Assembly: GCA_039929185.1 (NCBI GenBank)
Contig: JBDSRR010000140.1
Span: forward strand, 1 to 50,696
DNA: 50,696 nucleotides
Reading direction: 5' to 3'
Origin: Actinomycetota bacterium
GTDB taxonomy: Bacteria > Actinomycetota > CADDZG01 > JAHWKV01
This document shows, one piece after another, positions 3,470 through 47,479 of this stretch (the stretch's first letter is position 1; every line of letters starts with the position of its first letter). Position numbers and translations under genes: made by a program. The notes beneath the pieces are model-generated. The model did no database searches, was not told the DNA's origin, and saw only the letters and a program-made list of their open reading frames with translations.

Positions 3470-4065
3470 ATCAACAATTTCGAGACCGTGTCGTATTGCC
3501 GTTTGCGATACCGGTGGGGGCCCTGGCCTTTATCGGCGTGTTGACTTTTGGGATGTCTCGGGTGCTGCTCAACGTGTCGCCGCTGATAGCCACTGCTGTT
3601 GCCCTAATGACAGCTTTTAATATCGTCGTAGCGGCCTTTATCATCGCGGCCAGAGCCAAAGTCGATCTTGCACAGTTGGCAGCGATGACAGCGGTGGCAC
3701 TCTTGCCATTGGCTATCGGTGGGGCGGTTGCCGCCGGCGTCGTAAAGGTCACCGTTAGTGAAGAACACAAAGATGCGGCGCCGCAGGCCAAGGTGGTTGC
3801 AATATCCGCTAAGGATTTGAAGTTCGACACCTCCACCCTGGCCATTCCTTCCGCCGTCAAGTTCAGTTTGAAATTTACGAATGGCGATGAAGATCCACAC
3901 AACGTTGAGATTTTGCGCGCCAAGGGCGGCGAGAAACTCTTCAGCGAAAAGTTTTTCGCTGGACCGAAGACGGTTGAATGGGGGGTGGCCCCCATCGAAG
4001 CGGGGGAGTACTACTTCCAATGTCAGGTTCACCCGAGCATGAATGGCAAGGTCACGGCCAACTAG
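3466..4065 (+). CDS. membrane-anchored cupredoxin (type-1 blue copper) domain protein
   Basis: The start forms an ATGA overlap with the ctaG stop. About three N-terminal TM helices precede a C-terminal cupredoxin domain. Candidate ligands are His in DPHNVEI and the amicyanin-like short loop C-x2-H-x2-M in YYFQCQVHPSMNGKV. Confidence 0.8.
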   Translation: MNQQFRDRVVLPFAIPVGALAFIGVLTFGMSRVLLNVSPLIATAVALMTAFNIVVAAFIIAARAKVDLAQLAAMTAVALLPLAIGGAVAAGVVKVTVSEEHKDAAPQAKVVAISAKDLKFDTSTLAIPSAVKFSLKFTNGDEDPHNVEILRAKGGEKLFSEKFFAGPKTVEWGVAPIEAGEYYFQCQVHPSMNGKVTAN

Positions 4066-4070
4066 GCGCC

Positions 4071-5954
4071 ATGAACAGGCGTTTTCAGAAACTTTCCGTC
4101 GTCACCACAGCAACCACCCTCTTGCTGGTTGTCGTCGGGGCTATTGTGCGTGTTACCAAGTCGGGGCTTGGGTGTGGAACCGATTGGCCGCATTGTCACG
4201 GCAAGCTCGTGCCGACCATCGAACGTGCCACGGTTGCCATCGAATACTCCCATCGCCTTTTGGCCGCAACGGTCGGATTGCTGGTTCTTTCGTTGACGAT
4301 ATTCGCCTGGCTCAAGATGCGGCAGTTCCGGTCGGTATTTTGGCCAGCGCTGGCAGCATTGGTTATCGTGGTCGGGCAAGGCTGGATAGGTCGCAACGTC
4401 GTTATTTTCGAGCTTCGTCGTTTAGATGTCGTTGTTCACTTCATGACCGCTATGACGCTGTTGGGCATTTTGACTGTGCTGTCGGTGAACTCATTCATGC
4501 CGCGGGGCGGCCGCTCCACTTCGATCTTTAGGCATGGACTCGTCGGATGCTTTGCCACAGTAACTGTGCTTGTTGTAGGGGCACTGGTTTCACAATACGA
4601 GGCGGCTGGCGTCTTTCGAGACTGGCCTTTGATGAACGGTGGCATGCTTCCGCGATTCAGCGACTCTGGTGAAGTCCTTCATTTCGGGCACCGCGTTCTT
4701 ACGCTTGTTTTGGGAGCGATCTTGGTTTCACTAGTCGTCAAGGGTATCGTTAAGGCGACTGACCGACTCTTGGTGAAACTTGCTAAGAGTGCTCTAGTGA
4801 TCTGGGCTTTGCAGGTTGCCATAGGTGCGCTGAATGTCTTCACGAGGTCAGATGGCTGGGCCGTAGTCGCTCACGTTGGTATGGCTGCAAGTTTGTGGGT
4901 GACTGTTGTCTGGTTCACCGCCGCTTCTTACAGACGCTCTACCCAGCCCAGCCATGAATCTGGCCCAGTTGGCCCAGTTGGAACCTTGCGCCAAACGGCG
5001 ACCGCCTTCTTCATGTTGACGAAACCGCGCATCGTCGAGTTGCTTCTCATCACGACTGTCCCCGCGATGCTGCTTGCCGGTAAACCCTCATGGTGGCTGG
5101 TTGTTGCAACGCTCGTAGGTGGCACTTTGTCCGCTGGGTCGGCAAACTCGATCAATTGCTACTTCGATAGAGACATCGACGTAAAGATGGAACGAACTTC
5201 TGGCCGACCCCTGCCGCAGCATCAAGTAACGCCTCGCGCTGCGGGCATTTTCGGAGTTGCCTTGGGCGTCGCTGGTTTCGTTTGGCTTGCGCTACTCGTT
5301 AACCTGCTTGCCGCGGCTTTGGCGACCTCAGCTATCGTGTTCTACGTTTTCATTTATACCCTTTGGCTCAAACGTACGTCACCTTCCAACATCGTGATCG
5401 GCGGGGCTGCGGGGGCGGTTCCCGTTCTGGTTGGGTGGGCAGCGGTAACGGGCAAGGTCGAGGCATCCGCTTGGGTTATGTTCGCCATCATCTTTTACTG
5501 GACACCTCCGCACTTTTGGGCGTTGGCATTGAAATATAGGGAAGACTACGAGCGGGCCGGAGTCCCGATGCTGCCCGTGGTTAAGGGGGTCCCGGAAACA
5601 GCGCGACAGATCTTGTTGTATTCAGCCGTGCTCGTTGCGGTGAGTTTGGTAATGCTGCCGGTCGCTGGGTTGGGCTGGCTTTACTTGACGAGCGCTTTGG
5701 TTCTGGGTGGAGCGTTCATTGGCTACGCGTGGCGTCTAAAGATCCAGCCTGACGTTAAACGGGGAATGGCTTTGTTCCACTTCTCGTTGGCATATCTAGT
5801 GCTTTTGTTCGCAGCGATGGCGCTTGACCGAAGGATGGGTCTTTCGGCCGCCCCGATCGTTGATCGTTCGGCCTTCATCTCAGCAGTTCTGTTGTTTGCT
5901 GCAGCGCAGGCCGCCATATTGATCCGGGGCAACAGGAGAGTCGTATCGTCCTGA
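4071..5954 (+). CDS. ctaA/ctaB: fused heme A synthase (CtaA/COX15) and protoheme IX farnesyltransferase (CtaB/COX10)
   Basis: I chose ATG 4071 (MNRRFQKLSVV) because the track start at 3978 overlaps the cupredoxin gene. The N-terminal half has GLGCGTDWPHCHG and four conserved His-containing helices (EYSHRLLA, VVHFMTA, HFGHRVL, VAHVGMA). The C-terminal half has MLTKPRIVELLL and NCYFDRDIDVKMERTSGRPLP (UbiA-type). The linker SGPVGPVGT is encoded by a 9-bp tandem repeat. Confidence 0.85.
   Translation: MNRRFQKLSVVTTATTLLLVVVGAIVRVTKSGLGCGTDWPHCHGKLVPTIERATVAIEYSHRLLAATVGLLVLSLTIFAWLKMRQFRSVFWPALAALVIVVGQGWIGRNVVIFELRRLDVVVHFMTAMTLLGILTVLSVNSFMPRGGRSTSIFRHGLVGCFATVTVLVVGALVSQYEAAGVFRDWPLMNGGMLPRFSDSGEVLHFGHRVLTLVLGAILVSLVVKGIVKATDRLLVKLAKSALVIWALQVAIGALNVFTRSDGWAVVAHVGMAASLWVTVVWFTAASYRRSTQPSHESGPVGPVGTLRQTATAFFMLTKPRIVELLLITTVPAMLLAGKPSWWLVVATLVGGTLSAGSANSINCYFDRDIDVKMERTSGRPLPQHQVTPRAAGIFGVALGVAGFVWLALLVNLLAAALATSAIVFYVFIYTLWLKRTSPSNIVIGGAAGAVPVLVGWAAVTGKVEASAWVMFAIIFYWTPPHFWALALKYREDYERAGVPMLPVVKGVPETARQILLYSAVLVAVSLVMLPVAGLGWLYLTSALVLGGAFIGYAWRLKIQPDVKRGMALFHFSLAYLVLLFAAMALDRRMGLSAAPIVDRSAFISAVLLFAAAQAAILIRGNRRVVSS
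4962..4979 (+). repeat. perfect 2 x 9-bp in-frame tandem repeat (GGCCCAGTT) in the CtaA-CtaB interdomain linker
   Basis: Read directly from the sequence: 4962-4970 equals 4971-4979, encoding GPVGPV. Confidence 0.95.
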
Positions 5955-21198: not shown

Positions 21199-21660
21199 TT
21201 ACCTGCTGATGTATTTGTCGAGTCGATTCATCGCCGTGGCTCGGATCTTGTTTTGCAGGAACGGTAAGCCGCCGAAGAGTCGGCCTGGCAATCCGAGCGC
21301 TTGCGAAGCCCACGAATGTAGGTCGAACGAATCGCGATGGACGATGATCTTGTCGTCCATGAACTCGAAGCTGGCGTCGATGCGGTTGTGTACTTTGCGT
21401 CCAGTGGTGAAGGTGTATCTGGCTTCCCAATGGGCGCTGCCGTTGCTGCCATCTGTCGCAACGTCGCCGAGCTCGATGCTCAGATCCGACCCGCCTTCGC
21501 AAAGCATCTTCCACATAGCCCCAGCGCGCGGACCCTTAAGATCGGTGAAAACGGGGTCGGAGAACTGAACCTCTGGGTGATAGCAAGCGGCCATTCCGTT
21601 ACCGTCGCGCGCCTGAAATGCTGCATAGAAGTTCCTGATCGTAGTTTCATTCTGTTCCAC
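21199..21660 (-). CDS. NTF2-like / SnoaL_2 family protein
   Basis: I chose GTG 21660, with AGGAGG (21667-21672) 6 nt upstream. This start overlaps the cyclase-STAND stop by 14 nt. The NTF2-fold pattern is IRNFYAAFQARDGNGMAACYHPEVQFSDPVF ... HWEARYTF ... DKIIVHRDSFD. Confidence 0.75.
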   Translation of the reverse strand: MEQNETTIRNFYAAFQARDGNGMAACYHPEVQFSDPVFTDLKGPRAGAMWKMLCEGGSDLSIELGDVATDGSNGSAHWEARYTFTTGRKVHNRIDASFEFMDDKIIVHRDSFDLHSWASQALGLPGRLFGGLPFLQNKIRATAMNRLDKYISR

Positions 21661-24600
21661 TATCCACCTCCTGGGATCTAAGATTCGTTGAAGGGCCGAG
21701 CGCGAATTCCACAGCTTCGTCAATAGTCATCGCCTTGCCCTCATGCCACGCTTTATCGAACAAGGCTTCGTCTAAGCCATTGTGCAACAAGGCTACGTCA
21801 TTGTCGTAATCTCCCCGGCTGACGGGAGGGATCGAAGAGTGAGCGGTTTGCCGCATAGTTTCCGCGGCACCAAACAAGCGTGCGGCGCGTTCAAGTTCGC
21901 CTTTGTCAGCCGCCAGTCCTGCAAGTAGCTCCAGGCTTTCGGGGATCTGGGGGCGCAATCCTGCGTCGCGCACCAAGGTCAACGCTTCACGTAGCAAACT
22001 ATCGGCTTGCAATGTGTTTCCTTCGGCCCTGGCCAACAACCCCAAGCTCGCGAGGGGTCCAGCGATCAAGATCGGTATACCTAACTCGCGAGATATCGCA
22101 AGGGATTCACCGAGCAGCGGGCCTGCCGCGACAAGATCGTTCTGCGCTCGCGCGGTTTCTCCCAAACCGTGAATAAAAGCGGCCGCGAGCCTCCTGTTAT
22201 CCGTGGGTCGCACCATCGAAACGCACTCTTCCCAGAGTGCGCGTGCTGCGGGTAAGTCGCCTTGATAGTACGCGATCCCTCCAGTCAAACCGAGCGCCGC
22301 CGCAGTAGTCAGATCGCCGCTAATCTCGCGGTAGATGGTGAGGCACTCCTCGGCGATGGCCCGGGCCTCGTCATAGTCCTGGTTCGCCAGAGCCGCATTG
22401 GCGAGTCCGGTCAGCCAGGCAACCTCCCCTGAATCCCGTACGATCGAAACTGCTTCTGCCCACGAGGAAGCCGCAGATTCATGGTCACCCCGCATCCTCG
22501 CCAGGGGGACACGTTGGGCGAGCAACAGTCTCATGCCTTGTCTGTCTCCTATTTCCCGGGCGATCGCCAGCCCTTCCTCAAGCAGATCGTGCTCTTTTTT
22601 GAAGTCCCCATCTTCATGGGCAAGAAAGGCAAGGATGTACGTGAACCTGGTGGTGGCCACGGCTCCCTTCTGCTTGCGAGACAGACCCAACCCCTCTTCG
22701 GCCAATAGGTGTGCCGTGGCGCGGTCTCCGGTTGCTAAAGCAACTTGGATCAGTCCCCCAAGCGTCGTTCCTTGCAAGAACAGGTTGTCAATTTCTCGGG
22801 CAAGCACGAGGTTCTCAGCTAACAACAACCGCGCTTTGGTCATATCTCCTTCGTAAAGTGCGACGAGGGCGCGGTCCCTTTGGGCAGCCGCAATCCCCCA
22901 TTTGAATCCAGTGGCGGTGGAGATCTCCAGACATTCGCCGGCGAGTTCGGATGTCATCCGTAGGTCTCCGGTGAGGAGCGCCAGCCAGGATCGTGCAGCA
23001 AGCGCTCTGGCGCGGACCTCTGGCAAAGGCTCTCCCGGTTTTGAGAGTGCTTGATCGAGCCAACTGGCGCCCTCACTTAAGTAGCCACTGATCGACCAAA
23101 AATGCAGGAGGTCAGCCGCCAACAGCAGCGCTGGTGTCGGATCTGCCTCGCCGAGACTCCATTCGAAAGCCGCACGGATGTTGTCATGTTCGGATTCAAG
23201 AACCTTGAGTGATTCTCCGACCGCTGCACCCGGCAACTCCTCCTCCCAAGCTTGCTCCGCAACGGAGAGGTAGTAATCCCGGTGGGCGATCCGAAGTGCC
23301 TCGGCACCTTCCGACTCGTAGGCTTTCTCTCGGCCGTATTGGCGGATCGTTTCCAATAACTTAAAACGCGCAGCGGAGCCGATGGTGTCCTTCTGCACGA
23401 GCGACTTGGAAACAAGGTTCGTAAGGTGTTGCAGTATCTCCTGAGCATTCAGTCCACCGCCAGCACAAACGGCCTCAGCTGCTTCGAGGGTGAAGCCACC
23501 AGCGAATACTGAGAGCCTGGCTAGCAGAAGTCGTTCTTGATCGTTAAGGAGTCTGTAACTCCAATCGACAGCGGCGCGCAGAGTTTGCTGGCGCTCGAGT
23601 GCGGTCCTGCTGCCTCCGATCAGCAAGCGAAACGTGTCATCGAGGCGCGCAGCTATCTGTTGTGGTGTAAGCGCAGTGACTTGGGCGGCGGCCAGTTCGA
23701 TCGCAAGCGGAATGCCTTCGAGCCTGCGACAGATCTGCGCGATCGCGGGAGCGTTATCGGCACTTACAACGAAATCGCTTTGCACTTGGGCTGCTCGGTC
23801 TTCGAACAGAAGGACCGCTTGGTAACTACTCATCTCATGCACAGCAGGCATATGGTCAGGGTCGGGCGTCGACAGTGATGGGACTCGAAAACTTGTCTCG
23901 CCCGCAACCCCAAGCGGTTCGCGCGAAGTCGCGACGATCCGCAGATTCGTGCATGAATGCAGAAGCATGTGTGACAATTCCGCGCAGGCTGAAATGAGGT
24001 GCTCGCAGTTATCCAAAACCATGACTGTGGATTTCGAGCGGATGTGGTCGGCAAGTCTCTTGGCCGAATCTCTGTTGTCGTTGGGGCTCTCGCCGGTTTC
24101 GATCATCGATCCGGATTGACGTAAACCTAAGGCGTGGGCGGCACTTTGGGCAACGAGGGCTGGGTCAGACACGGGGGCAAGGTCGACGAACCAAACGCCC
24201 TGCGACTCGGAGTCAAGAAGGTCCGCAGCAGCGTGAACAGCAAGACGAGTCTTGCCGCAGCCAGCCGCGCCGGTGAGTGTCACCATCCGGCTGTTCGAAA
24301 GGATCTTCTTGAGATCGATCATCTCCTGTTCCCTTCCGACGAACGATGTGAGCTGTACCGGCAGATTATTCGGAAGGGACTCAAGAGAATTGAGTGAAGG
24401 GAACTTCTCAAGCAGGTCTGGGTGGACCAATTGGTAAACGCGCTCCTTGCTGGCAAGATCCTTCAGAAGGTGCATACCAAGGTCCTTCAGGTGTGAACCA
24501 CCGGGAAGCCTGTCGCCCACAACCTCGGATGTGGCCTGAGAAACGAGTACTTGTCCTCCATGTCCTATGGCGCGAAGCCGTGCGGCGCGGTTGAGGGCTG

Positions 24601-24967
24601 GCCCGAAGTAGTTGCTCTCGTCGCGTAGTTCGATCTCGCCGGTATGCACCGCCATTCTTACGCGCAGCTCGATGTCTTCGGGCCAAGGCTCGTGAGCAAG
24701 GGCGCGCTGGAATTGCACTGCACATGCGAGAGCGTCGGTTGCGCGAGCAAAAGCACACAGGATGCTGTCTCCTTCTCCCTGATCTTTCGGGCGTTGTCCG
24801 CCCGTTTCGCTGATTGCAGCCTGCGCTATCTCATCGTGACGCGACACAACCTTGCGCATCGCTGCAGGATGTGCTTCCCATAGCGAGGTAGATCCCTCGA
24901 TGTCGGTCATGAGAAAAGTAACGGTGCCGGTAGGGAGCACGGAGAGGTCTGGTGTGCCGGGTGCCAT
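21647..24967 (-). CDS. class III nucleotide cyclase - STAND (NB-ARC/AfsR-type) NTPase - TPR array protein, 1106 aa
   Basis: Cyclase domain: VTFLMTDIEGST, GEGDSILCAF and FGPALNRAARL. Walker A is LTGAAGCGKT (24248-24271) and Walker B is VMVLDNCEHL. More than 500 aa of TPR-like repeats follow. I see no C-terminal LuxR HTH. Confidence 0.9.
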   Translation of the reverse strand: MAPGTPDLSVLPTGTVTFLMTDIEGSTSLWEAHPAAMRKVVSRHDEIAQAAISETGGQRPKDQGEGDSILCAFARATDALACAVQFQRALAHEPWPEDIELRVRMAVHTGEIELRDESNYFGPALNRAARLRAIGHGGQVLVSQATSEVVGDRLPGGSHLKDLGMHLLKDLASKERVYQLVHPDLLEKFPSLNSLESLPNNLPVQLTSFVGREQEMIDLKKILSNSRMVTLTGAAGCGKTRLAVHAAADLLDSESQGVWFVDLAPVSDPALVAQSAAHALGLRQSGSMIETGESPNDNRDSAKRLADHIRSKSTVMVLDNCEHLISACAELSHMLLHSCTNLRIVATSREPLGVAGETSFRVPSLSTPDPDHMPAVHEMSSYQAVLLFEDRAAQVQSDFVVSADNAPAIAQICRRLEGIPLAIELAAAQVTALTPQQIAARLDDTFRLLIGGSRTALERQQTLRAAVDWSYRLLNDQERLLLARLSVFAGGFTLEAAEAVCAGGGLNAQEILQHLTNLVSKSLVQKDTIGSAARFKLLETIRQYGREKAYESEGAEALRIAHRDYYLSVAEQAWEEELPGAAVGESLKVLESEHDNIRAAFEWSLGEADPTPALLLAADLLHFWSISGYLSEGASWLDQALSKPGEPLPEVRARALAARSWLALLTGDLRMTSELAGECLEISTATGFKWGIAAAQRDRALVALYEGDMTKARLLLAENLVLAREIDNLFLQGTTLGGLIQVALATGDRATAHLLAEEGLGLSRKQKGAVATTRFTYILAFLAHEDGDFKKEHDLLEEGLAIAREIGDRQGMRLLLAQRVPLARMRGDHESAASSWAEAVSIVRDSGEVAWLTGLANAALANQDYDEARAIAEECLTIYREISGDLTTAAALGLTGGIAYYQGDLPAARALWEECVSMVRPTDNRRLAAAFIHGLGETARAQNDLVAAGPLLGESLAISRELGIPILIAGPLASLGLLARAEGNTLQADSLLREALTLVRDAGLRPQIPESLELLAGLAADKGELERAARLFGAAETMRQTAHSSIPPVSRGDYDNDVALLHNGLDEALFDKAWHEGKAMTIDEAVEFALGPSTNLRSQEVDSGTE

Positions 24968-33871: not shown

Positions 33872-34840
33872 TTACCGAAATGAAAGGGACACGCCGAAGT
33901 CGCCTGCCGTGTCGGTCCACCAATGTCGCATCTCAAGTCCTGCCTCAGCCAATTCGCCCTCTAGGGACTCGCGGCGGAACTTGGCGCTGATCTCTGTAAG
34001 GAGACGCTCGTCCTTTGCGAATGCGATATCTAGCCCGATAGATGAAAGCCTCACTTCCTGGTCGACCGTTGATCGCAGCGACATCTGCATCCACTCGTGG
34101 TCTTCATCGAACCGAGCAACGTGCTGAAACTTGTTGACGTCGAAGTTCGCCTGTAGCTCCTTGTTCAATACGCGCAGTACATTGCGGTTGAACTCGGCTG
34201 TCACTCCGGCTGGGTCGTCATATGCAAGTTCGAGCCTCCGCTGGTCTTTCATGAGATCCGCACCGAGCAAGAAGGCGTCGCCGGGTTCCAGGACTTCCGC
34301 GACTTCAGCTAAGAATCCTTTTCGCTGTTCGCCAGTGAGATTGCCGATGGTGCTTCCGATAAAGGCGAGGACCCGACGACCACCGTGCGGTATTTGCGAA
34401 AGATGGCTTTCGAAATCACCTACAACGGCATGAACGCTGACATCGTGGTACCGAGCCATGATGGTTTGAGCGGCGGCTCGCATCGTTTTTTCGTCGACAT
34501 CAAACGGGATGTATCTTTGCAGCGAGCCCGCCTGGGAGAAGGCGTCAAGCAGGATCGTGGTCTTGTTCGAAGTGCCCGAGCCGAGTTCGATGAAAGTATC
34601 TGCACCTGTCAGTTTCGATATGTCGTCCGCACGGGCTAGGAATATTTCGGTTTCGCGTCGAGTCAGATAGTACTCATCGAGGCGCGTGATCTGATCGAAT
34701 AGATCTGCGCCGACCTCATCGTAGAAGTACTTGGAAGGAATGCTCTTGGGGGTGCAAGTCAACCCCTCTAAGGCATCGCGCTCAAGGGTTGCCCTTTGTT
34801 CGTCTGGCCCGAGATGAACATCGATGTGAAACTGCGCCAT
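33872..34840 (-). CDS. egtD: L-histidine N-alpha-methyltransferase EgtD
   Basis: ATG 34840 forms an ATGA overlap with the egtB stop. PKYFYD-type motifs are present: IPSKYFYDEVGADLFDQITRLDEYYLTRRE, ELGSGTS and FLGSTIGN-like FIGSTIGNL. The product is 322 aa, about the size I recall for mycobacterial EgtD. Confidence 0.9.
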   Translation of the reverse strand: MAQFHIDVHLGPDEQRATLERDALEGLTCTPKSIPSKYFYDEVGADLFDQITRLDEYYLTRRETEIFLARADDISKLTGADTFIELGSGTSNKTTILLDAFSQAGSLQRYIPFDVDEKTMRAAAQTIMARYHDVSVHAVVGDFESHLSQIPHGGRRVLAFIGSTIGNLTGEQRKGFLAEVAEVLEPGDAFLLGADLMKDQRRLELAYDDPAGVTAEFNRNVLRVLNKELQANFDVNKFQHVARFDEDHEWMQMSLRSTVDQEVRLSSIGLDIAFAKDERLLTEISAKFRRESLEGELAEAGLEMRHWWTDTAGDFGVSLSFR

Positions 34841-36120
34841 CAGGCATCGCGGGCGCAGCGCAAGCCTGCGAATATCTGCCGACGGACCGGGAAGTCCCAA
34901 TTGCGAAAGGTGTTCCGTATGGCAAGCGGATGCGTTGCCCAGGATCCACCTCGAAGGACTTTGTATCCCCGACCGAAGAAAACCTCGGAGTATTCTCGGT
35001 ATGGAAACGAGTTGAACTCCGGATAAGCCTCGAATGGTGACGATGTCCATTCCCAAACATCGCCGATCATTTGATGACATCCCAAGGGACTGACCCCCCC
35101 CGGAAAGCTCCCTACCGCCGTTGGCTTGAACCGTGCTTCGCCAAGGTTTGCAAGATCTGGTGTTGGCTCACCGTTGCCCCAGGGAAAACGCCGCTTGGTT
35201 TTGGTCTTCGGATCCCATGATGCTGCGGTTTCCCACTCCTGCTCCGTCGGGAGTCGCTTGCCCGCCCATCGGGCATAAGCATCGGCTTCGTGCCAGCACA
35301 CATGCTGAACCGGCTCATCCATGGGAAGAGTTTCTTTGCGACCAAAGCGTGTCCTTGACCAAGTTGCACCATCAAGGTCCCAGAATTCAGGGTGTTCAAG
35401 CGATGCCTCCATGCGCCAAGCCCAGCCTTCGTCTGTCCACCATCTTCGGTCGCCATAGCCGCCCTCTGCCATGAATGACAAGTAGCGCTCATTCGTTACC
35501 GGGGCAGTGTCGATGTAAAACGGAGGGAGCGTCACCTGATGACAGGGACGTTCGTTGTCGTAAGCCCACGGCTCGATGTCGGTGCCGACGGTAAACGTTC
35601 CACCATCGACCAGCACTTCTTCGGTGGTTATCGAAACGGGTTTCGGGTCCGATGCGAGCCGGACTGGATATTCACCAGGACGCAGTTGCAATGTTGCCAG
35701 CATGGTCTCGTCGTGCTGATGCTCATGCTGAACCACCATTCCGTAAATGAACCCTTCGTGTAGCAGTGGGTTGGTAGGGTCGAACTCCACGTCTTCGAGG
35801 ATGTCGAAGACCCTGCCGCGAACGTTGCCGATGTATTGCCGTGCTTCGTTAGGGTTCAGCAACGCTAGGCGGGTTCGTTGCCTTCTAGCGTGTTTGAAAG
35901 CATCGTAGATGTCGTCGAGTTCGGGGTTCGAAGCCGGAACCCCTGCCACCATTCGCAGAAGCCAGATCTCTTCATAGTTGCCTACGTGCCCCAAGTCCCA
36001 AACAAGCGGCGACATCAGTTCCGAATGCTGCACGATCTGGTCTTCCTCAGACACGGGGGAAAGCAGCCCCAGGGATCGTTGCCGCACCTCTTCGAGTTGT
36101 CTTGCGATCTGTTCCTTCAT
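34840..36120 (-). CDS. egtB: ergothioneine sulfoxide synthase EgtB (DinB-like plus FGE-sulfatase domains)
   Basis: LMSPLVWDLGHVGNYEEIWLL and HEHQHDETM form the 3-His iron site region. The C-terminal FGE-like domain reads RGGSWATHP. The gene overlaps egtA by 4 nt. Confidence 0.92.
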   Translation of the reverse strand: MKEQIARQLEEVRQRSLGLLSPVSEEDQIVQHSELMSPLVWDLGHVGNYEEIWLLRMVAGVPASNPELDDIYDAFKHARRQRTRLALLNPNEARQYIGNVRGRVFDILEDVEFDPTNPLLHEGFIYGMVVQHEHQHDETMLATLQLRPGEYPVRLASDPKPVSITTEEVLVDGGTFTVGTDIEPWAYDNERPCHQVTLPPFYIDTAPVTNERYLSFMAEGGYGDRRWWTDEGWAWRMEASLEHPEFWDLDGATWSRTRFGRKETLPMDEPVQHVCWHEADAYARWAGKRLPTEQEWETAASWDPKTKTKRRFPWGNGEPTPDLANLGEARFKPTAVGSFPGGVSPLGCHQMIGDVWEWTSSPFEAYPEFNSFPYREYSEVFFGRGYKVLRGGSWATHPLAIRNTFRNWDFPVRRQIFAGLRCARDA

Positions 36121-37334
36121 GGGCCGATCTTTGCGCTCATCAGGTCGATCTGTTCATCCGCAGGCGTCCTTCGCCGTGCTATGAATCGTTCGTAGTAGTC
36201 GCTAATCGCTGACGCGGTTGTTATGTCCACCCGCGACGTTGGCATCGCGTCCATGACGGCGACGAAACATGCATCGGCGGCTTGGGCGAGTGTGGGGTGG
36301 TCTAGCCCCGATGACCAAGCTTCGGTCCAAAGATCCTTGCTTTTTGAGATCAAGTCGGCCGCCTTGTCTAGCGCGTCAGCATCTTGCAGTAGTACGCACG
36401 TAAGTGCCGTGGCAACTCGCCACCAGGGGGCCGGTAGGCTGTCGATCACGCGTATCTCGAGCCATCCCTTGGCACGCACCGGAGGAAACAGGGTGGTCAA
36501 GTGGTAGGCGAAATCGTCTTCGGTCGGGTAGCCAAGTTCGTGTCCCTGTTCGATCCAACGCCGAAAACTGAAGGCAGAAGTAATCGGTACGAAACGGGTC
36601 TCGGTTGCCTTCATGAAAAGCACTTGCGCGGCCAGGGCGAAATTTGTCCAATCAGCGACGTAGCCAGACGCGCCGAGCGCTGGCATGGTTCGGGATGGGT
36701 CGATGGCTGACCAGATCGCCATCCGAGTCGACTTCCAAGGAGTCGGCCTGCCTGCGGCCATCGGTGAGTTCGCGAATGCAGCGATAAGCATGGGGCCGAT
36801 GTTGTGCGCCGTTTCCCAGCGAGTCTGACCATCGCCGCCAAGGTCGATGTTGACTTGAAGCGCGGCAGTGTTTCGCATCATCTGTCTTCCGAACCGATTC
36901 CGAGAGTCGAATCCGCGTTCCATCGCCTCGTAGCGCTGCCCACCAACGACGCGGGGCCTGTCGAGAATGGGATCTATAGCCGTCGAGTGCACTGAGAATC
37001 CACCTTCGCTAAGGCGCTTTAGCAGTTCTCGTTCGTCTTTGGCGGTGGCCATGCACGCGGATGCGGCCCCAGCATGCGGGACCGAACTCACTTCGACTTG
37101 ACCTCCGGGTTCGAAGCTGATGATCGAACCCGCTCCCAATGGCCCCCTTGATGTCGCTGATGTCGCTGCGGTTTTGAGAGCGGGGAAGTCGACGATTTCG
37201 GATGGGTTATGAGACGGGTAAGTGATCAACTCTAGCTCGATCCCCACGCGCTCAGAACCGGTTGATGTGAAACAGTGCTCGCTTACATGACGCAGCGCAG
37301 CATCGGTGTCAAAGCTTCTCTTAAGACCCGGCAT
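36117..37334 (-). CDS. egtA: glutamate-cysteine ligase EgtA (GCS2 family)
   Basis: The product shows GCS2-type carboxylate-amine ligase motifs (RVGIELELI, FEPGGQVE). The gene sits directly upstream of and overlaps egtB. Confidence 0.85.
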   Translation of the reverse strand: MPGLKRSFDTDAALRHVSEHCFTSTGSERVGIELELITYPSHNPSEIVDFPALKTAATSATSRGPLGAGSIISFEPGGQVEVSSVPHAGAASACMATAKDERELLKRLSEGGFSVHSTAIDPILDRPRVVGGQRYEAMERGFDSRNRFGRQMMRNTAALQVNIDLGGDGQTRWETAHNIGPMLIAAFANSPMAAGRPTPWKSTRMAIWSAIDPSRTMPALGASGYVADWTNFALAAQVLFMKATETRFVPITSAFSFRRWIEQGHELGYPTEDDFAYHLTTLFPPVRAKGWLEIRVIDSLPAPWWRVATALTCVLLQDADALDKAADLISKSKDLWTEAWSSGLDHPTLAQAADACFVAVMDAMPTSRVDITTASAISDYYERFIARRRTPADEQIDLMSAKIGP

Positions 37335-37364
37335 CGGTCTAGAAAAGATAACCCAATGTGGAAG

Positions 37365-38162
37365 TTATGGAGTCGCCGCTGCCTCGGATATGTCTTCGAT
37401 CAGGGATGCGAGTAGGCGTTGAACCGCATCAAATCCTTTATTTGCTTTGCCCGTTTCTTCATCGCAGTAAGTGTCGCGCCTGACCTCGATCATGATCGAA
37501 GTCACGCGAGGGTCTTTGTTCCAAAACCTTATAGGGGTGTAGGTGCCTTTGAATGGAATATCAACCAGGACATCGCCCCCAGCGCGTCGAGTCAAGTTTT
37601 CGACCAGGTTTCGAGGGGTGTGGAATCCGTCTGTCCCGAAACATAACGATGGCCGTTGGGCGTCGGGGTGCAATTCCCACCCGAGCGCCACTTTGGGAAA
37701 TGAGTGGCAATCGATGATGGTGCATCGCCCAAAACTATCCAATATGTCTGAAACCGCATTCTCGAAGCCTAAGGCGTAAGGGTCGAAATACTGGATGAGT
37801 ATTTGCTCGCGTTCGTTGTTCGTAAAATTCGCATCGCGAAGGTCGTGTCCTAGTGAGGTTTTGCGATAAACGGCCCCCGCACCGCGCGACGCCATGTATT
37901 CATCCTCGTCCTTGCGGAACCGCTCCGGGTCGAAAACTAGGCGGCTCAGGCCGTTTACGAACATCGCTCCTCCCACGTGCAGGACGTGTTCGTACAGTCG
38001 ATCGGTCAGATGGTCGGTGACGCGCATCTTCTCGACGTGCAAATCATCATCGGCCAGTAGGATCGTGGAGCGAACTTCGGCTGGAATGGCTGTGGCGCTA
38101 TGTGGAACATGGCCGATCACTGGAACCGTTGGCGCCCAGCCCTTTAGCTCGAAAGGGGTCAT
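37365..38162 (-). CDS. N-formylglutamate amidohydrolase (FGase, PF05013-like) family hydrolase
   Basis: The family pattern is visible: IGHVPHSATAIP, SRLVFDPER, YFDPY, IIDCHSF and IMIEVRRD. The gene lies 30 nt upstream of egtA on the same strand. Confidence 0.8.
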   Translation of the reverse strand: MTPFELKGWAPTVPVIGHVPHSATAIPAEVRSTILLADDDLHVEKMRVTDHLTDRLYEHVLHVGGAMFVNGLSRLVFDPERFRKDEDEYMASRGAGAVYRKTSLGHDLRDANFTNNEREQILIQYFDPYALGFENAVSDILDSFGRCTIIDCHSFPKVALGWELHPDAQRPSLCFGTDGFHTPRNLVENLTRRAGGDVLVDIPFKGTYTPIRFWNKDPRVTSIMIEVRRDTYCDEETGKANKGFDAVQRLLASLIEDISEAAATP

Positions 38163-39941: not shown

Positions 39942-42900
39942 TTGTTTTCAAACGTTTCTACCGCGCGCGCATCTTGGCGTCGAACGGGCTGTATCTCGAT
40001 AGCTTTGCTGTTGTCTGCGTCATTGCTGACTATGGATGGCAGTTCCAACCAAGCCAAGGCTGCATCATCTTCAACCGGATTGACCGTCGCTGACGAGTAC
40101 AGTGCCGATTTTTCATCTTCGACGAGCCGCGGTATCGGGCTTCGCTACATCAACAAGGCAACCGATCTATACGTCGACCTTCGCCTGCATGGATACGAAG
40201 GCAAAGACCCCACCATCAGCGGCAAGAAAGCATCGTTCTCAGCCCCCGGGATGAAAGTGAACTACGAGACCGGCGTCGAATCTGTCAAAGAAACCATCGT
40301 CTTAGAAAAGCGTTCGCCCTCGACACTCAGGTTCAACTTCTCCGCTCCTGGGCTCAAAGCAAGTATGGAAAACGATCAGATCGTCTTCTCACCGCCGGGT
40401 GAGACTTGGATGTTTCGCTTGGGCAAGCTGGAAGCCAAAGATGCGCTCGATATCCCGATCCCAGGAACCATGCAGATCGAAGGCAGCACAGTGGTGATTC
40501 GGCTAGACCAAGCTGCACTTGCCAATGCCACCCTGCCGGTCACGATAGACCCCACCATCGAGGGCGTGCCTTCGGGGGCTACTTCGGGCACTTATGGCAA
40601 GAGATTGTTTCGAACCTCGGATGGTCGCTTCATCTTTTTCTATCGTGAGCTACCCACTTCTGGTCCAAGGCTCGTATATCGCACATCTGCGGACCAAGGC
40701 AAGACATGGACACCGGTCGTTGTCATCGGACCAGCTGGATCTTCAGCGGATCTTTCAGTCGCCTCTTTGCCAGATGACGGCTTCGCCATTTCCTACTCGT
40801 CCGGTACTGTTGATCTTCCCAAGGTGTCGTTTCGCCGCCTTACCCGCTCGGGTACCTCTTGGGATATCGGTGCTGACAGCCAAGTCACCAACGTGGCCGT
40901 GTACTTGTACCCGCTGCCGAGCGTCGTTGCTCTTGACGTTGGTCCTTTAGGCCAGCGCTTCGCCGTGGGGTATGCCCAGTTCAACAAAGTGTTCAACCGA
41001 TTTGAGTATGGCACGAGCTTGTCGCAGGACTCGGGTACGACCTGGCTTCCTGCACCTGCATGTTCTACCCAAACGGGTGCCGGCATGCTGGTCGCCCAAG
41101 GCTCGCGCCTTATCTGCATAACCGCGCATCCCGGTGGCGTTGATGCGCGGATTTACAATGGCACCACCTGGGGTACCCCCGTCGTTGTATTCGACTGCTG
41201 CATCAACGATATCCCGAGCGCCGCGACTACTAAAGATGGACGTTTGCACTTGGTCACGAGCAGGGCCAGCTCGGTGCGCTACTCGAGCCTGGCACCGGGT
41301 GCTTCGACTTGGCAACCCCAAAAGACACTTGGTTCTGGGAAATTGCCGGTCATCACCACCGACGGTACCGCACTGTTCGTACATGCTGAATACAGGTTGT
41401 CTAACAAAGAGTCGCAAATCAATTCCTTCGTCGCCACAGATGGCATCAACTTCAACGCCGGTAAACCCTTGGGGGGCAAGGCGTTCGATTACGTATTGGA
41501 TTACAACGAGAAATTCGATTTCCAAGACCTTGCAGGCGACGCATTGTTCGGTTTGGTTGCAACCGGAACAGTCGTCGGTAACCGCATCGGAAGTTCCTCG
41601 ATCTTTCACCGCTTAGATTCGCCCACTAAGAAGTTGTCATTCGGCTTTACAGCATCGGCTGCAGAGACGGTCACGGGTATCAAATTGTGGGCTACCGCAA
41701 ATGTCGTAAATACCTTAAGGGTCGGGATCCAGTCGGATTCAGGCAGCGCGCCTGGTATGCCAAGTGGTAACTGGCTTCAGGGCACAGGCACAGGAGGACT
41801 TCAGGTGAACTCGTTTACCAATATGACAACAGTTGCATCTCCAATCGACCCGATACCGCTCACGACCGCTTCGCTTCCGGTGACCCAGCTCTACGAGAAT
41901 GTGCGCTATCACCTTGTAGTTGAACCCGACGCCGCACAAAGCACAACCAAATGGGCAGCGATCCAAGCGGTTGGAACTGACGCTGGCTTGCAAACCCATC
42001 AGGACGTACTCGATTACGGGGTTACTTCGACCGCTTGGGTGGTGGCGGCTGCCGAGGTCCCGCGATTCGCTTTATCGGGTCCATCGGCAGAGATCATCGA
42101 ATCTCAGCTCATCGCCTTGGCTACCTCATATGCAGTGCGTGATTACCAAGGCCTTGATTACCAAGGCGTTGGGGAGTCTTTCCTGGCAACGAGCACCGCT
42201 ATCTCCCCAACCAACCTTCGAATGCATCTGACCAAGGTAGGAAACCCCCACACCATCAAGATACGCATGATTGAAGATCAAACCAACACCGAGATATGGT
42301 CAACCGAGTACACTCCGCCTTCTAGCGGTGGATGGGTGTCAGTTCCGATAACTGGGCTTACTCTCACGCCCGGAGCGAGGTACCGCTATACCGTTGAAGC
42401 GCTCACGTACTCCGCAGCCGACCATTGGTTGATGAGTACCTCCGGTGACATGGCCGTTTCTTGGGATGGGATTCTGAGCACAGCTACGCGCTATCTTGAC
42501 CGGCCCGGATTCGCTGACAAGACCGCTCGATCTGCCGACTCGGCCTGGGGCACCCCCGACTTCTGGGCGTTCAACACCGACGACAACGATGCCTTGTATC
42601 TGGGCAACTCAGAGCCATTTGACTTCGCCGTCCTCACCCGTTTGTCCGCCGATGTGGGCGTAAAGCCCGATGCCACCTGGTCCTATTACAACGGCGTGGC
42701 GGATACAGCGCTTGTCATGACCCGAAACGAACTCACCAAGACCTCGGGAGAGGCATCTTTCAACATGCCCGACGACTGGGCGATGTCGACCGTTGACGGC
42801 AAGAACGCCTACTGGGTGAAGGTGAAGGCGGCCTACCCGTCCATAGCATCGATCCTGGTTGACCGGTTGACCTCGATAAGAAACTTGTCAGCCCCCACCG

Positions 42901-45779
42901 CGACTCCGATCTTCGACGACCCCGTCCAGGGCTCACCCATTGCATACGCCGATCTCAACCTGCCTCCCAAGGTGGCCTTCACTCTGTACGACGCCGTAGG
43001 TCCGGCCGGCACTCCAGAGGTGCGCCCCAATCCCTTCGACCTGGGAGTCGGAGGAGTAACCCAGACGCATATCGGATTCTTCTTCCCCGAGCACGTTTCA
43101 TACACACTTTCGATCAAGAGGGCGTCGACCGACGAGGTGGTTCGAACCGTCAGTGGATCGGGTACCGGAGTGAGCTTTTACTGGGACGGCAAGGACTCCT
43201 CAGGGGGGACCGTTGGAAATGCTACATACAAGGCCGTCGTGTCCGCCGTGGACGATCAGGGAAACCAACAAACGGACGGAGTGTGGGTGACTAAGGGTCC
43301 GGGTCCTTTGATCACATCAACCTCGAAGACCAAGGTGCAGATCGGCGAGCTATTTACTGTCACCGGCACTGGGTTCGACACGGGGCTCGGCGTCTACGGG
43401 GTGAACTTCGAGGGAGGCTCCTTGGAGGTCTCATCTTGGAGCCCGACTCAGATCGTCGCGCGCTTTCCTGCTGGGACTCAAACTGGATCTCACTCGATAA
43501 ACGTGTTGGAAGCCGATACGACAAGTCCACCCTTTTTGATCGACGTCGCAAACTACATCGTACCCACCTTAGGGCAGGAGATCCTGGCTGGGATCATGAC
43601 CTTCAAGGTGACCGCATCAGCGGACGCCTTCGCTATCGCTTCGTCTCACGGTGTTCCTACATCATCTGTGTCGGCGATGTTTGCGGGAACTTCCGACACC
43701 GATCTGTCCCGTTGGTATGTCGCGCAAGTCAACCCGACGACCGAAGCCTCCTTAGTGACGGCGTTCGCCGCCGACTCGCAGGTGGTGTGGGCTGAGGTAG
43801 AAACACCGGCCTTCCCGGCTGCAACCATCCCCAACGACAAGGCCTACACCGACGGCAAGCAATGGGGCCTGGACGATCTTTCAGGCACGACCGACAACGA
43901 CATCGATGCCGCACGGGCATGGGACGTTTCCACGGGTGTTACTTCCACGACGATCGCCGTCATCGATTCAGGAATCTCGCCCCACTGGGACCTTGTTTCC
44001 AACCTGGTTGCAGGAAGAAACTACACAACGTCAACCTCTACCGACGACGGTTGCATCGGCACAGACATCGGATCGCACGGCACCGAGGTGGCGGGCATCT
44101 CTTCTGCGGCGACCAACAACGGCAACGTAAATCAGCCTGATTCGATGGCGGGGGTGTCATGGATTGGTAAGGTGCGCCCCTACAAAGTGCTGTCCAACAT
44201 CGGGGGCCACTGCCGTTGGGCGACAGCGACGCCCACGACCACACTTGCAAATGTGATCTACCAAGCTGCTGTTGACGGCAGCGACGTGATCAACATGAGC
44301 CTCACGCAGTCGATGTACTCGGGATCTGAGCAGGACGTAATCACCGGCGCCTGGAACCTGGGAAGAAGCCTCGTCGCACCCTCCGGCAACGATGGTGCTG
44401 CCGTCACCTCCTTCCCGGCGGCATTCAAGCACGCGATCGCAGTCGGAGCGATAAACAGGGCGGGAAATATCATTTCATCCTCAAATAAAGTCGACAAGGG
44501 CAAAGGTGTGTATGCCCCCGGGGCCGACATCTACACAACGCAGGCAACATCATCGGGATACGGATTCGCTCAGGTCACGGGGACTTCGTTCGCGTCGGCA
44601 TTCGTGGCGGGAGTTGCCTCGCTCATCCGCAGTAAGGGCCAAGACAACGTCTACACATTCCATGCAATCGTGGATATCGCCATCCAAAGAAAAACCGACG
44701 GCCCTCAGTTGTTGTGGGCTGACGGCTCTCTGATCCTATTTAGAAACGTAACCATTCCCGATGGCGTGTTCGTTCGCAATCAATCTTCCTGGTATTTCCT
44801 TGATCGAGGAAAGAAGCGGCTAATAGCCGATGCCAACATCCTTCATTCGTGGGGTATATATGATCAGCTGAACGACAACAGCCGCAGGACCAACGTGGTC
44901 TATGTCAACGACGAACGTCTGCCATTAGCAAAGGGAGATCTCCTTGGCTTTCGTCCCGGCGTTCTTTTAAAGTCAGACGTGACAACCGACACCAACGTTT
45001 ACGTCGTCTCCAATGACATCAATCCCAACCCGGGGCTCGATACGAGCGAGTTTGGTCGCTGGACCAGGGGCGATCTCAAATCGCTCGACCCGGCAAGACT
45101 TGCCTGCCTTGGCTACAAGATCGACAGGGCCATAACTGTACCGGTGGCCCTCCTTACCGCCCTCTACTCCACCCCGACTGTCTACAATTCGTGCGACAAC
45201 CATCCCAACGGGTCGATCCTTGCCAACACGACGCCGGCCGTGGGCAAGACCTTCTGGATGAGAGACCTCGGCACCCTGCGCACCGTCGCTGGAACCAACG
45301 AGACAGCGTCATTAGAAGGGCAAGTAAACGGGCAAAGTACACGAAACGCAGGGGTCTTCACCTCCTGGGGTATGGGTGACTTTGACGACCCGCTCGCCAA
45401 CGACGCCATCATTCCCAACTCCTCCGCCGACTTGGAAATACAGCGGCTGCAACCCAGCCAGCTCGTGACCGAAGGACGTACTTGGCTGGGGTATCGGTCT
45501 GGAACAACGGTCAAGCTCACTTATAAGGACGGCTCTCAAGAATTGTTCGTGATCACACTTCCAAACGCCAACGGGATCGCACCCGACTTTGGTGCCGCGA
45601 ATCGTCGGGTATTGGACAGCTACCGCACCCTAACTTGCTATGGCTTCTCCTGGCTTGCAATCCAGGCAAGAGGGGATTGGAACACTGTTAACGGGATCCA
45701 TCACGTCCAGGTGAACGTTGAGACTTACAAGAACCAGAAGGCTATTAATATACCCAACGTATTTTTGCCTTGCCCTTGA
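39942..45779 (+). CDS. 1945-aa secreted multidomain protein: Asp-box (BNR/sialidase-like) region, beta-sandwich modules, FlgD-Ig-like and IPT/TIG-like domains, I9-like propeptide plus S8 subtilisin-family protease, and an unassigned C-terminal region
   Basis: TTG 39942 follows AGGGGGG. The signal-peptide-like N-terminus ends AKA/A. Asp-boxes are TSADQGKTW (40683-40709) and SQDSGTTW (41022-41045). The S8 triad is D1342 in VIDSG (43965-43967), H1379 in HGTEVAG (44076-44078) and S1549 in GTSFA (44586-44588), with the oxyanion Asn in SGNDG. Confidence 0.85.
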   Translation: MFSNVSTARASWRRTGCISIALLLSASLLTMDGSSNQAKAASSSTGLTVADEYSADFSSSTSRGIGLRYINKATDLYVDLRLHGYEGKDPTISGKKASFSAPGMKVNYETGVESVKETIVLEKRSPSTLRFNFSAPGLKASMENDQIVFSPPGETWMFRLGKLEAKDALDIPIPGTMQIEGSTVVIRLDQAALANATLPVTIDPTIEGVPSGATSGTYGKRLFRTSDGRFIFFYRELPTSGPRLVYRTSADQGKTWTPVVVIGPAGSSADLSVASLPDDGFAISYSSGTVDLPKVSFRRLTRSGTSWDIGADSQVTNVAVYLYPLPSVVALDVGPLGQRFAVGYAQFNKVFNRFEYGTSLSQDSGTTWLPAPACSTQTGAGMLVAQGSRLICITAHPGGVDARIYNGTTWGTPVVVFDCCINDIPSAATTKDGRLHLVTSRASSVRYSSLAPGASTWQPQKTLGSGKLPVITTDGTALFVHAEYRLSNKESQINSFVATDGINFNAGKPLGGKAFDYVLDYNEKFDFQDLAGDALFGLVATGTVVGNRIGSSSIFHRLDSPTKKLSFGFTASAAETVTGIKLWATANVVNTLRVGIQSDSGSAPGMPSGNWLQGTGTGGLQVNSFTNMTTVASPIDPIPLTTASLPVTQLYENVRYHLVVEPDAAQSTTKWAAIQAVGTDAGLQTHQDVLDYGVTSTAWVVAAAEVPRFALSGPSAEIIESQLIALATSYAVRDYQGLDYQGVGESFLATSTAISPTNLRMHLTKVGNPHTIKIRMIEDQTNTEIWSTEYTPPSSGGWVSVPITGLTLTPGARYRYTVEALTYSAADHWLMSTSGDMAVSWDGILSTATRYLDRPGFADKTARSADSAWGTPDFWAFNTDDNDALYLGNSEPFDFAVLTRLSADVGVKPDATWSYYNGVADTALVMTRNELTKTSGEASFNMPDDWAMSTVDGKNAYWVKVKAAYPSIASILVDRLTSIRNLSAPTATPIFDDPVQGSPIAYADLNLPPKVAFTLYDAVGPAGTPEVRPNPFDLGVGGVTQTHIGFFFPEHVSYTLSIKRASTDEVVRTVSGSGTGVSFYWDGKDSSGGTVGNATYKAVVSAVDDQGNQQTDGVWVTKGPGPLITSTSKTKVQIGELFTVTGTGFDTGLGVYGVNFEGGSLEVSSWSPTQIVARFPAGTQTGSHSINVLEADTTSPPFLIDVANYIVPTLGQEILAGIMTFKVTASADAFAIASSHGVPTSSVSAMFAGTSDTDLSRWYVAQVNPTTEASLVTAFAADSQVVWAEVETPAFPAATIPNDKAYTDGKQWGLDDLSGTTDNDIDAARAWDVSTGVTSTTIAVIDSGISPHWDLVSNLVAGRNYTTSTSTDDGCIGTDIGSHGTEVAGISSAATNNGNVNQPDSMAGVSWIGKVRPYKVLSNIGGHCRWATATPTTTLANVIYQAAVDGSDVINMSLTQSMYSGSEQDVITGAWNLGRSLVAPSGNDGAAVTSFPAAFKHAIAVGAINRAGNIISSSNKVDKGKGVYAPGADIYTTQATSSGYGFAQVTGTSFASAFVAGVASLIRSKGQDNVYTFHAIVDIAIQRKTDGPQLLWADGSLILFRNVTIPDGVFVRNQSSWYFLDRGKKRLIADANILHSWGIYDQLNDNSRRTNVVYVNDERLPLAKGDLLGFRPGVLLKSDVTTDTNVYVVSNDINPNPGLDTSEFGRWTRGDLKSLDPARLACLGYKIDRAITVPVALLTALYSTPTVYNSCDNHPNGSILANTTPAVGKTFWMRDLGTLRTVAGTNETASLEGQVNGQSTRNAGVFTSWGMGDFDDPLANDAIIPNSSADLEIQRLQPSQLVTEGRTWLGYRSGTTVKLTYKDGSQELFVITLPNANGIAPDFGAANRRVLDSYRTLTCYGFSWLAIQARGDWNTVNGIHHVQVNVETYKNQKAINIPNVFLPCP
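42141..42170 (+). repeat. in-frame 2 x 15-bp tandem duplication (GATTACCAAGGCCTT / GATTACCAAGGCGTT) inside the giant gene
   Basis: Read directly from the sequence. The copies match at 14 of 15 positions and encode DYQGL-DYQGV. Confidence 0.95.
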
Positions 45780-47226: not shown

Positions 47227-47479
47227 AAGGCCAAATTTGGCCCTGTGTGTTGCCTGACATTGTCTTGGCCCCGTGGTACCCACATCGGAATCGATGATGG
47301 CATTGGGCGATACTTTCCTTCGGGGGGACGCGGGCACTGGAACACCGACTGGCTGCCACGGAACCACCCGAATGGAAAGCGATTCGCTCCACCGTCGCTG
47401 GCACGGGCACTGCCGACCTCCAAGAGCCTAAGGTACGCCTCCGACCTCGAAAACGTCGAGTGGGCAGATTTGCGGAGTC

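Follow-up and report, generated by a model that had tools for sequence, protein, structure and literature searches.

A predicted secreted protease precursor of an uncultured Actinomycetota bacterium joins a subtilisin-type enzyme and its prodomain to an N-terminal head found on Rhs proteins

In subtilases, the prodomain acts first as an intramolecular chaperone and afterwards as a tight-binding inhibitor. In the thermitase-like enzymes of this family (PF22148 + PF00082; 1THM and 1DBI), the prodomain comes right after the signal peptide, and extensions, where there are any, are C-terminal. Here we describe a gene from an Actinomycetota bacterium (assembly GCA_039929185.1, contig JBDSRR010000140.1) whose product differs from these enzymes in that ~1170 residues precede its prodomain. 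The whole stretch of DNA that was analysed, a complete contig 50,696 nucleotides in length, is called the window, and the product of the gene is called the window protein. Judged from its sequence, it is a real secreted protein of 1945 residues that joins a head of ~1000 residues to a complete subtilisin-type protease precursor. We lean towards reading it as a Sec-exported and surface-targeted modular precursor of ~200 kDa, from which an extracellular protease would be released by a self-cleaving prodomain.

Sec-exported polymorphic toxins that contain a subtilisin-type peptidase have been reported before from comparative genomics (Zhang et al. 2012, PMC3482391). The Sec-dependent Rhs/YD toxins of that study share with the window protein a signal peptide, a large common N-terminal region and a subtilisin-type peptidase inside a large secreted protein. 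At the level of the head family, the likeness extends to the presence of the head on DUF6531+RHS proteins and to the many C-terminal tails. However, the Pfam scan of the window protein gave no match to PF05593, PF20148 or PF25023; without RHS repeats and DUF6531, it does not qualify as an Rhs protein. Its C-terminus, moreover, is constant among the members with an S8 domain, no small cytoplasmic-type immunity gene follows its gene, and a protease with its own prodomain resembles cargo rather than a releasing device.

Two other described systems are close. WprA of Bacillus subtilis is a characterised secreted S8 precursor that gives rise to two stable wall-associated products, CWBP23 (derived from the propeptide) and the protease CWBP52 (PMC8767453). 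The N-terminal part of WprA is ~23 kDa and without a propeller, beta-sandwich or Rhs-type head, whereas the window protein has these as well as a duplicated C-terminal module and a partner gene, both of which WprA lacks; likeness in sequence between the two is known for the S8 domain only. In the S8-PTS of Gram-positive bacteria, a separate small S8 peptidase, encoded in a conflict-type locus, has as its proposed substrate a BetaH-toxin that is secreted with it and has an immunity gene (Li, Tan & Zhang 2022, PMC9424270). Genetic coupling of an S8 peptidase to a secreted partner is common to both cases, but the peptidase of the window is fused behind a 1000-residue head and its neighbour is a propeller+Ig protein without a recognised toxin domain.

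There are precedents for each part of the window protein and for the swapping of cargo on a constant head, whereas, within reach of these searches, no description exists of the combination, the many-tailed head family, the tail domain or the conserved partner. An initial annotation, made from the sequence of the window, had listed domains that are essentially borne out, and had regarded the arrangement as unprecedented. No characterised protein with exactly this arrangement was found, and a literature search on internal prodomains or propeptides in subtilases returned nothing relevant, but the claim is softened by the toxins of PMC3482391 and by WprA.

The gene and the protease half of its product

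The open reading frame (ORF) consists of 1945 sense codons and runs over 5.8 kb without a stop or frameshift (Table 1). It is the longest in the window, as the initial annotation had noted, and the runner-up encodes 1106 aa. Translation is assigned to a TTG codon, with the end of a GGGGGG run 7 nt 5' of it. The NCBI record, MEO7804041.1 ("S8 family serine peptidase"), has the identical 1945-aa start. In an independent Logan assembly, the protein (P0001; relatives are cited by working numbers) is 100% identical, with the gene called from Met31 (40032) and the signal peptide lost. We favour the TTG at 39942 over Met31, because it is supported by the NCBI record and by the N-terminal layout of two paralogues, P0002 and P0003. 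By hydropathy, the predicted signal peptide has Arg9, Arg13 and Arg14, a hydrophobic core at aa 15–29 and the site AKA-A at 38–41; the N-termini of P0002 and P0003 likewise show basic residues, a hydrophobic core of ~13 residues and an AxA site. The Sec-type signal peptide proposed earlier is therefore present in its layout and kept in both paralogues. Neither LPXTG nor a transmembrane anchor was found in the sequence of the window protein.

The protease domain is recognised by PF00082 with an E value of 6e-27 (95.1 bits, with the cut-off at 21.8; aa 1336–1578). D1342, H1379 and S1549, together with N1483 as the oxyanion Asn, align to the catalytic positions of AK.1 protease (1dbi) and thermitase (1thm), so that the triad lies at exactly the residues named in the initial annotation, and all four positions are invariant or nearly so across 45 aligned sequences. 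The catalytic domain is 29–33% identical to these thermitase-like enzymes. Foldseek, which was run on whole multidomain models and whose matches were dominated by the propeller and the S8 domain, gave for the S8 model template modelling (TM) scores of 0.84 with 1thm (root-mean-square deviation, rmsd, 3.2 Å) and 0.88 with 1dbi. The GTSMAxPH motif of thermitase-like enzymes differs, reading GTSFASAF in the window protein. By profile, by triad and oxyanion Asn, and by predicted fold, the window protein thus belongs to peptidase family S8. A mycosin of the type VII secretion system (T7SS), the top NCBIfam match (TIGR03921), was rejected, since its score of 105 bits is far under the cut-off of 278.75 and there is no ESX context; a Pfam scan of window ORFs brought up neither ESX nor T7SS genes.

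The closest relatives of the S8 domain in a collection of 5.8 billion proteins are short thermitase-like enzymes, many of which carry an N-terminal PF22148 prodomain. When aa 1195–1583 were compared by BLASTP, the match was colinear through the PF22148 regions of P0117 and P0053. A profile of aa 1200–1300 (3 sequences) was aligned by hhalign with 8 PF22148 prodomains at a probability of 88% and an E value of 2.8e-6 over 68 columns. In the AlphaFold2 (AF2) model, aa 1218–1286 form a beta-alpha-beta-beta-alpha-beta fold with a predicted local distance difference test (pLDDT) of 92–97. Because the hhalign profile, the colinear BLASTP match and the AF2 fold agree, the segment is read as an internal prodomain of the fervidolysin type and not as Inhibitor_I9 proper; the I9-like propeptide of the initial annotation stands as a prodomain by profile and predicted fold, but its type has changed. 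The pLDDT falls below 50 at aa 1290–1294, after the prodomain, and the linker FPAATIP directly precedes PNDxxY..QW, the typical start of mature thermitase-like enzymes. A homologous prodomain followed by this mature start is the order seen in those enzymes too.

Two Ig-like domains lie between the head and the prodomain. The TIG domain suggested earlier is above the Pfam threshold. The FlgD-Ig domain suggested with it is sub-threshold in the window protein, but clear at the homologous position of the divergent relative P0199 (48 bits, E 1e-12).

Behind the S8 domain, the tail shows a tandem duplication within itself (aa ~1603–1677 and ~1772–1858; self-hhalign probability 94.5%, E 7e-8), each repeat of which reads "...SWG ... 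G[FY]RPG". This bears out the two divergent SWG modules that had been noticed by eye. Four cysteines (C1722, C1751, C1899 and C1944) are conserved in the six-member alignment. In each of the six members with an S8 domain, the distant P0199 included, S8 is followed by the same tail domain. From these sequence features, the tail is probably a disulfide-containing duplicated module that binds substrate or cell wall. When homologues of the C-terminal 371 aa were sought by word index, no matches came back; this is no evidence of rarity, because the query of aa 1195–1583 missed even the protein itself in the same kind of search.

Table 1. Features of the protease precursor, its partner gene and the sequence behind them, with window positions.
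Feature	Residues	Position	Strand	Basis
Whole gene, predicted secreted multidomain S8 protease precursor	1945 aa	39942..45779	+	identical to NCBI MEO7804041.1
Predicted Sec-type signal peptide	aa 1-40	39942..40061	+	hydropathy; layout kept in paralogues
Domain D1, beta-sandwich	aa 53-208	40098..40565	+	AF2, all-beta, pLDDT ~90
Six-bladed sialidase-like (BNR) beta-propeller	aa 222-522	40605..41507	+	AF2, Foldseek, weak Pfam BNR_2
Three further beta-sandwich modules	aa 527-730, 740-835, 845-1016	41520..42989	+	AF2
FlgD-Ig-like domain	aa ~1027-1115	43020..43286	+	Pfam 19.3 bits, gathering score 27 not reached
IPT/TIG domain	aa 1122-1193	43305..43520	+	Pfam E 5e-7, 30.1 bits against gathering score 20.9
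Internal subtilase prodomain, fervidolysin-NPro-like (PF22148-type)	aa ~1208-1290	43563..43811	+	hhalign, BLASTP, AF2
Linker FPAATIP, candidate autoprocessing region	aa 1291-1297	43812..43832	+	placed by analogy
Peptidase S8 catalytic domain	aa ~1320-1580	43899..44681	+	Pfam PF00082, PDB sequences, Foldseek
C-terminal domain, 356 aa	aa 1590-1945	44709..45776	+	six-member alignment, self-hhalign
Partner gene, predicted secreted YVTN/cd1-like beta-propeller with C-terminal Ig-like domain	458 aa	45850..47226	+	weak Pfam matches only
Terminator-like hairpin		47229..47242	+	consensus match only; such sites no commoner than in shuffled sequence

The N-terminal head and its family

The head (aa 41–1030) was modelled by AlphaFold as all-beta, with a pLDDT of 85 and a predicted TM score of 0.74 on an alignment of 23 sequences. 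Its first module, D1, is a beta-sandwich closed by LPVTIDPT at aa 198–205, and it is also found on the RHS proteins P0132, P0151, P0180 and P0183. The initial annotation had associated a beta-rich module with this ending with Rhs-type surface proteins, and the association holds, for the same block of ~1000 aa, or its first two domains, occurs on DUF6531+RHS proteins. The next domain had been described as BNR/sialidase-like with two Asp-boxes, and a propeller is indeed supported by AlphaFold and Foldseek. The Asp-boxes (SxDxGxTW) lie at aa 249–256 (40686–40709) and aa 361–368 (41022–41045), in agreement with the positions given in the initial annotation, and are conserved across 23 relatives. 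Pfam BNR_2 scores 17.8 bits in the window protein, under the gathering score of 31.4, and passes the threshold in the relatives P0135 (40.3) and P0136 (35.7).

In the PDB, the top Foldseek matches to the head model are sialidases and pseudaminidases (2w38 at E 8.5e-10; 7lbu and NanH with a TM score of ~0.5 on the target). The head thus shares the six-bladed propeller and canonical Asp-boxes with bacterial sialidases (GH33; 2W38, 7LBU, NanH), but differs from them in its sub-threshold BNR_2 match and in a FRIP-like Arg that is not conserved. Since this residue varies across the family, canonical sialidase function was not adopted for the propeller, which is probably a binding module; a role in binding is likelier than catalysis. 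When the head model was compared with BFVD, the top viral matches were large phage tail-fibre-like proteins at E ~1e-13 with a TM score of only ~0.2, namely Bacillus phage G gp427/gp425, the Vibrio phage JSF7 tail fibre and a marine-virus "sialidase domain" protein. On the predicted models, the domain types are alike, without a global superposition.

The three beta-sandwich modules that follow are without a Pfam or PDB assignment. The initial annotation had described two paralogous modules of ~150 aa here. Both are beta-sandwiches, but their kinship is weak: hhalign connects aa 527–730 with aa 740–835 at E 1.7e-4 over 33 columns, and a pairwise BLASTP of the two was not significant. The third module (aa 845–1016, DFWAFN...YWVKV) recurs widely elsewhere, with many partial matches at profile positions ~820–950.

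The first homology search returned two full-length relatives with 41% and 37% identity, and a further protein, P0004, that has only the first ~1030 aa in common with the window protein. When 1.84 billion cluster representatives were scanned in full with HMMER, the head profile gave 1380 matches at E<=0.001, 51 of them at E<=1e-30. The whole head is present on about 25 cluster representatives, which measure 987 to 3163 aa in total, and the regions after it fall into at least 13 classes unrelated by BLASTP. The S8 class is made up of the window protein, P0002, P0003, P0175 and P0177; the divergent P0199, which also bears the S8 half, was left out of the tail clustering. A DUF6531+RHS class consists of P0132, P0133, P0142 and P0151, and the head profile matches P0132 over positions 12–993 and P0151 over positions 8–973. 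RHS/DUF6531 domains (PF05593, PF20148 and PF25023) are present in the head-bearing P0132, P0151, P0180 and P0183. The first two head domains alone also front RHS proteins, one of which (P0180) has an Amidase_6 tip. For P0141, the tail shows a weak Exo_endo_phos match (EEP-like), and several other tail classes are without a Pfam assignment. Taken together, these sequences indicate that the head is a reusable cargo-swapping platform in uncultured Actinomycetota, Rhs toxin cages included. The initial annotation had overlooked this, as well as the conserved secreted partner encoded downstream.

All members with a source name come from Actinomycetota metagenome-assembled genomes (MAGs), and none has been characterised; the homology searches led to relatives that are unnamed or automatically annotated, and not to an already characterised family. 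Pattern scans derived from the head alignment found no relatives in GTDB species genomes or JGI metagenomes, but with two short peptides each they are weak evidence of rarity. The accessions of P0002 (MEO7804815.1), P0003 (MEO7804055.1) and the window protein (MEO7804041.1) are close and belong to two parallel series, and P0002 and the P0003-like P0277 were assembled from one sequencing run, SRR26386592. From the closeness of the accessions and the common run, three diverged paralogues (37–41% identity) are probably present in one MAG.

Some loci of the family were observed on the side. P0148 (locus L010, 1199–5053) has much of the head, from the propeller onward, together with a weak match to the alpha-lytic-protease prodomain and the motifs SSAGHC and GDSGSP. 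These sequence signs point to a possible S1 protease precursor, unrelated to S8, on a head of the same type. This reading stays tentative, because the comparison of its tail with PDB sequences gave a spurious nucleoporin match only and BLASTP against alpha-lytic protease (with an approximate query sequence) reached E 0.003 over 37 aa. Locus L008 (6027–17915) contains tandem genes of the head family, P0144 (full head and a 519-aa tail) followed by P0183 (two head domains and an RHS shell). At locus L003 (334–4148), P0004 has the head and a Cys-rich tail of ~140 aa; an ORF of 172 aa, which includes a signal peptide, has a 4-nt overlap with the end of its gene, and the two could be a small effector/partner pair.

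The partner gene and the genomic neighbourhood

The partner gene begins 70 nt 3' of the protease stop, and its product has its own predicted signal peptide. Orthologues of the partner, 34–40% identical, are encoded directly after the genes of P0002, P0175 and P0277 (loci L001, L005 and L006). The partner gene is thus found 3' of all four close S8-bearing genes. It is possible that the hairpin behind it marks the end of a two-gene protease/partner operon.

In the remainder of the window, the genes are chromosomal housekeeping ones, for cytochrome oxidase, haem A/O synthesis, a phosphate-binding-protein-like (PBP) product, transsulfuration, ergothioneine egtA-D and an amidase. Neither secretion-system genes nor mobile genes turned up among the ORFs of the window scanned against Pfam. 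Just upstream of the protease locus, an apparent ergothioneine cluster occupies 33872–38162 (minus strand), with GCS2/EgtA-like, DinB_2+FGE-sulfatase/EgtB-like, Methyltransf_33/EgtD-like and N-formylglutamate amidohydrolase-like genes. Farther away, a 658-aa ORF (3978–5954, plus strand) fuses COX15/CtaA (haem A synthase) with UbiA/CtaB (haem O synthase) and adjoins cytochrome oxidase subunit I (63–1691). A product of 1105 aa is encoded at 21647–24967 on the minus strand and combines an N-terminal adenylate/guanylate cyclase domain with a STAND-type NTPase and MalT-like TPR repeats.

Processing model, alternative explanations and significance

If the window protein is a surface-targeted precursor, the head would bring a latent enzyme to a surface, with two Ig-like spacers, the fervidolysin-type prodomain, the thermitase-like S8 domain and the duplicated tail as its cargo. 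After export, the prodomain would assist the folding of the S8 domain, which would then cut it at its C-terminal boundary, at about aa 1291–1297 (by analogy with thermitase-like enzymes, with the mature start just before PNDP). The products would be a fragment of ~133 kDa, comprising the head and prodomain, and one of ~70 kDa with the protease and tail; so large an N-terminal fragment is expected because ~1170 residues precede the prodomain. Autoprocessing into two halves, already proposed in the initial annotation, can reasonably be inferred from an internal prodomain by this analogy. The fragments would remain non-covalently joined and inhibited until the prodomain is degraded or displaced, and the protease would therefore arrive latent at the surface to which the head is bound. 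The tail would help to bind substrate or wall, and the partner protein would act with the protease as substrate, docking partner or inhibitor. Most likely, the role of the enzyme would be to act on proteins of the cell envelope or of the surface of neighbouring cells.

Several observations weigh against this model. The prodomain has no PF22148 or PF05922 match in Pfam at E<=1, and in the Foldseek comparison with unprocessed pro-subtilisins it was covered only at an rmsd of ~25 Å. It might also be cleaved at both ends, or at none. In the head, R224, the candidate for the FRIP Arg of sialidases and the only catalytic position that was mapped, is kept as R in 7 of the 23 relatives and replaced by Q in 7 and by E in 4, and because it is not conserved the ligand class of the head is uncertain; carbohydrate binding, proposed as glycan binding in the initial annotation, is probable by resemblance of the predicted fold. 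The tail found nothing in Pfam when each of the six members was scanned, and its profile made only a chance match to PDB sequences (6jls, E 0.26). AF2 confidence is moderate for aa 1604–1784, and the last ~160 residues are poorly modelled. Finally, the partner gene is absent next to the divergent P0199 (locus L002).

The same features bear on other explanations. The protein could be a true polymorphic toxin, in which S8 is the releasing peptidase, the 356-aa tail is the toxin and the downstream gene encodes the immunity protein. A head common to RHS-type toxins with many alternative tails would fit this, as would a tail without a Pfam or PDB match and three paralogous protease-partner pairs that have diverged in step (35–41% identity). 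Subtilisin is also among the processing peptidases of Sec-dependent polymorphic toxins, and Ntox32 occurs with peptidase S8 (PMC3482391). However, the tail does not vary as a toxin tip should under this explanation: it is constant in 6 of 6 S8 members, among them the distant P0199 and the three paralogues for which a common genome is probable, and it resembles a binding module with a duplication and disulfide bonds. Like free-standing secreted proteases, S8 comes with a chaperone prodomain of its own, and the neighbour is a 458-aa secreted protein of propeller and Ig domains, neither of which was found among immunity proteins (PMC3482391). With the missing partner gene at the P0199 locus added, such a toxin appears decidedly improbable. 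An artefact of assembly or annotation, in which a separate protease gene had been joined to an Rhs-type N-terminus, is suggested by the origin of the contig from a MAG and by the different start chosen by the gene caller of the other assembly. It is contradicted by the 100% identity of P0001 from the independent Logan assembly, by the colinearity of two paralogues and of members from other samples and assemblies, and by the uninterrupted reading frame, and we consider it extremely improbable.

Two further readings keep the protease as the active part and differ in its purpose. In one of them, the protein is a nutritional or housekeeping exoprotease whose head anchors it to its own wall or to a polymeric substrate; the likeness to Rhs proteins would then reflect a common anchoring device, and the prodomain would be degraded. 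The WprA precedent, with an S8 precursor giving two wall-bound products, is in line with this, and in a protein with no LPXTG or transmembrane anchor, the head or tail would have to bind the wall non-covalently. The housekeeping genes around the locus, with no secretion-system or mobile genes nearby, and the generic thermitase-like degradative enzymes to which S8 is closest speak for the explanation, but the other cargoes on the head are of toxin type (RHS cages with an Amidase_6 tip, an EEP-like domain) and not nutritional, and three diverged paralogues, each with a diverged partner, are unexpected for a bulk degradative enzyme, so that we regard it as rather unlikely. In the other reading, the head defines an undescribed family of Sec-exported modular effectors with interchangeable warheads, the prodomain is a release-and-arming device that frees the latent 70-kDa protease at the target, and the co-diverging partner is an inhibitor or immunity protein. 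The warheads would then be the Rhs cages, the S8 precursor, the possible S1 precursor, the EEP-like domain and several unassigned tails. This reading, with its list of warheads, is speculative, and we think it unlikely to be correct.

A surface-targeted precursor with a self-cleaving prodomain would not overturn current understanding. If it is true, a self-activating protease precursor behind a targeting head shared with Rhs proteins would be a different build of extracellular effector, in which self-cleavage of the zymogen would bring about activation and release at once. The conserved partner gene points to a testable protein-protein interaction. The head family, with one head and at least 13 tail classes in Actinomycetota MAGs, may be a source of new toxin or enzyme domains and of a surface-binding module.

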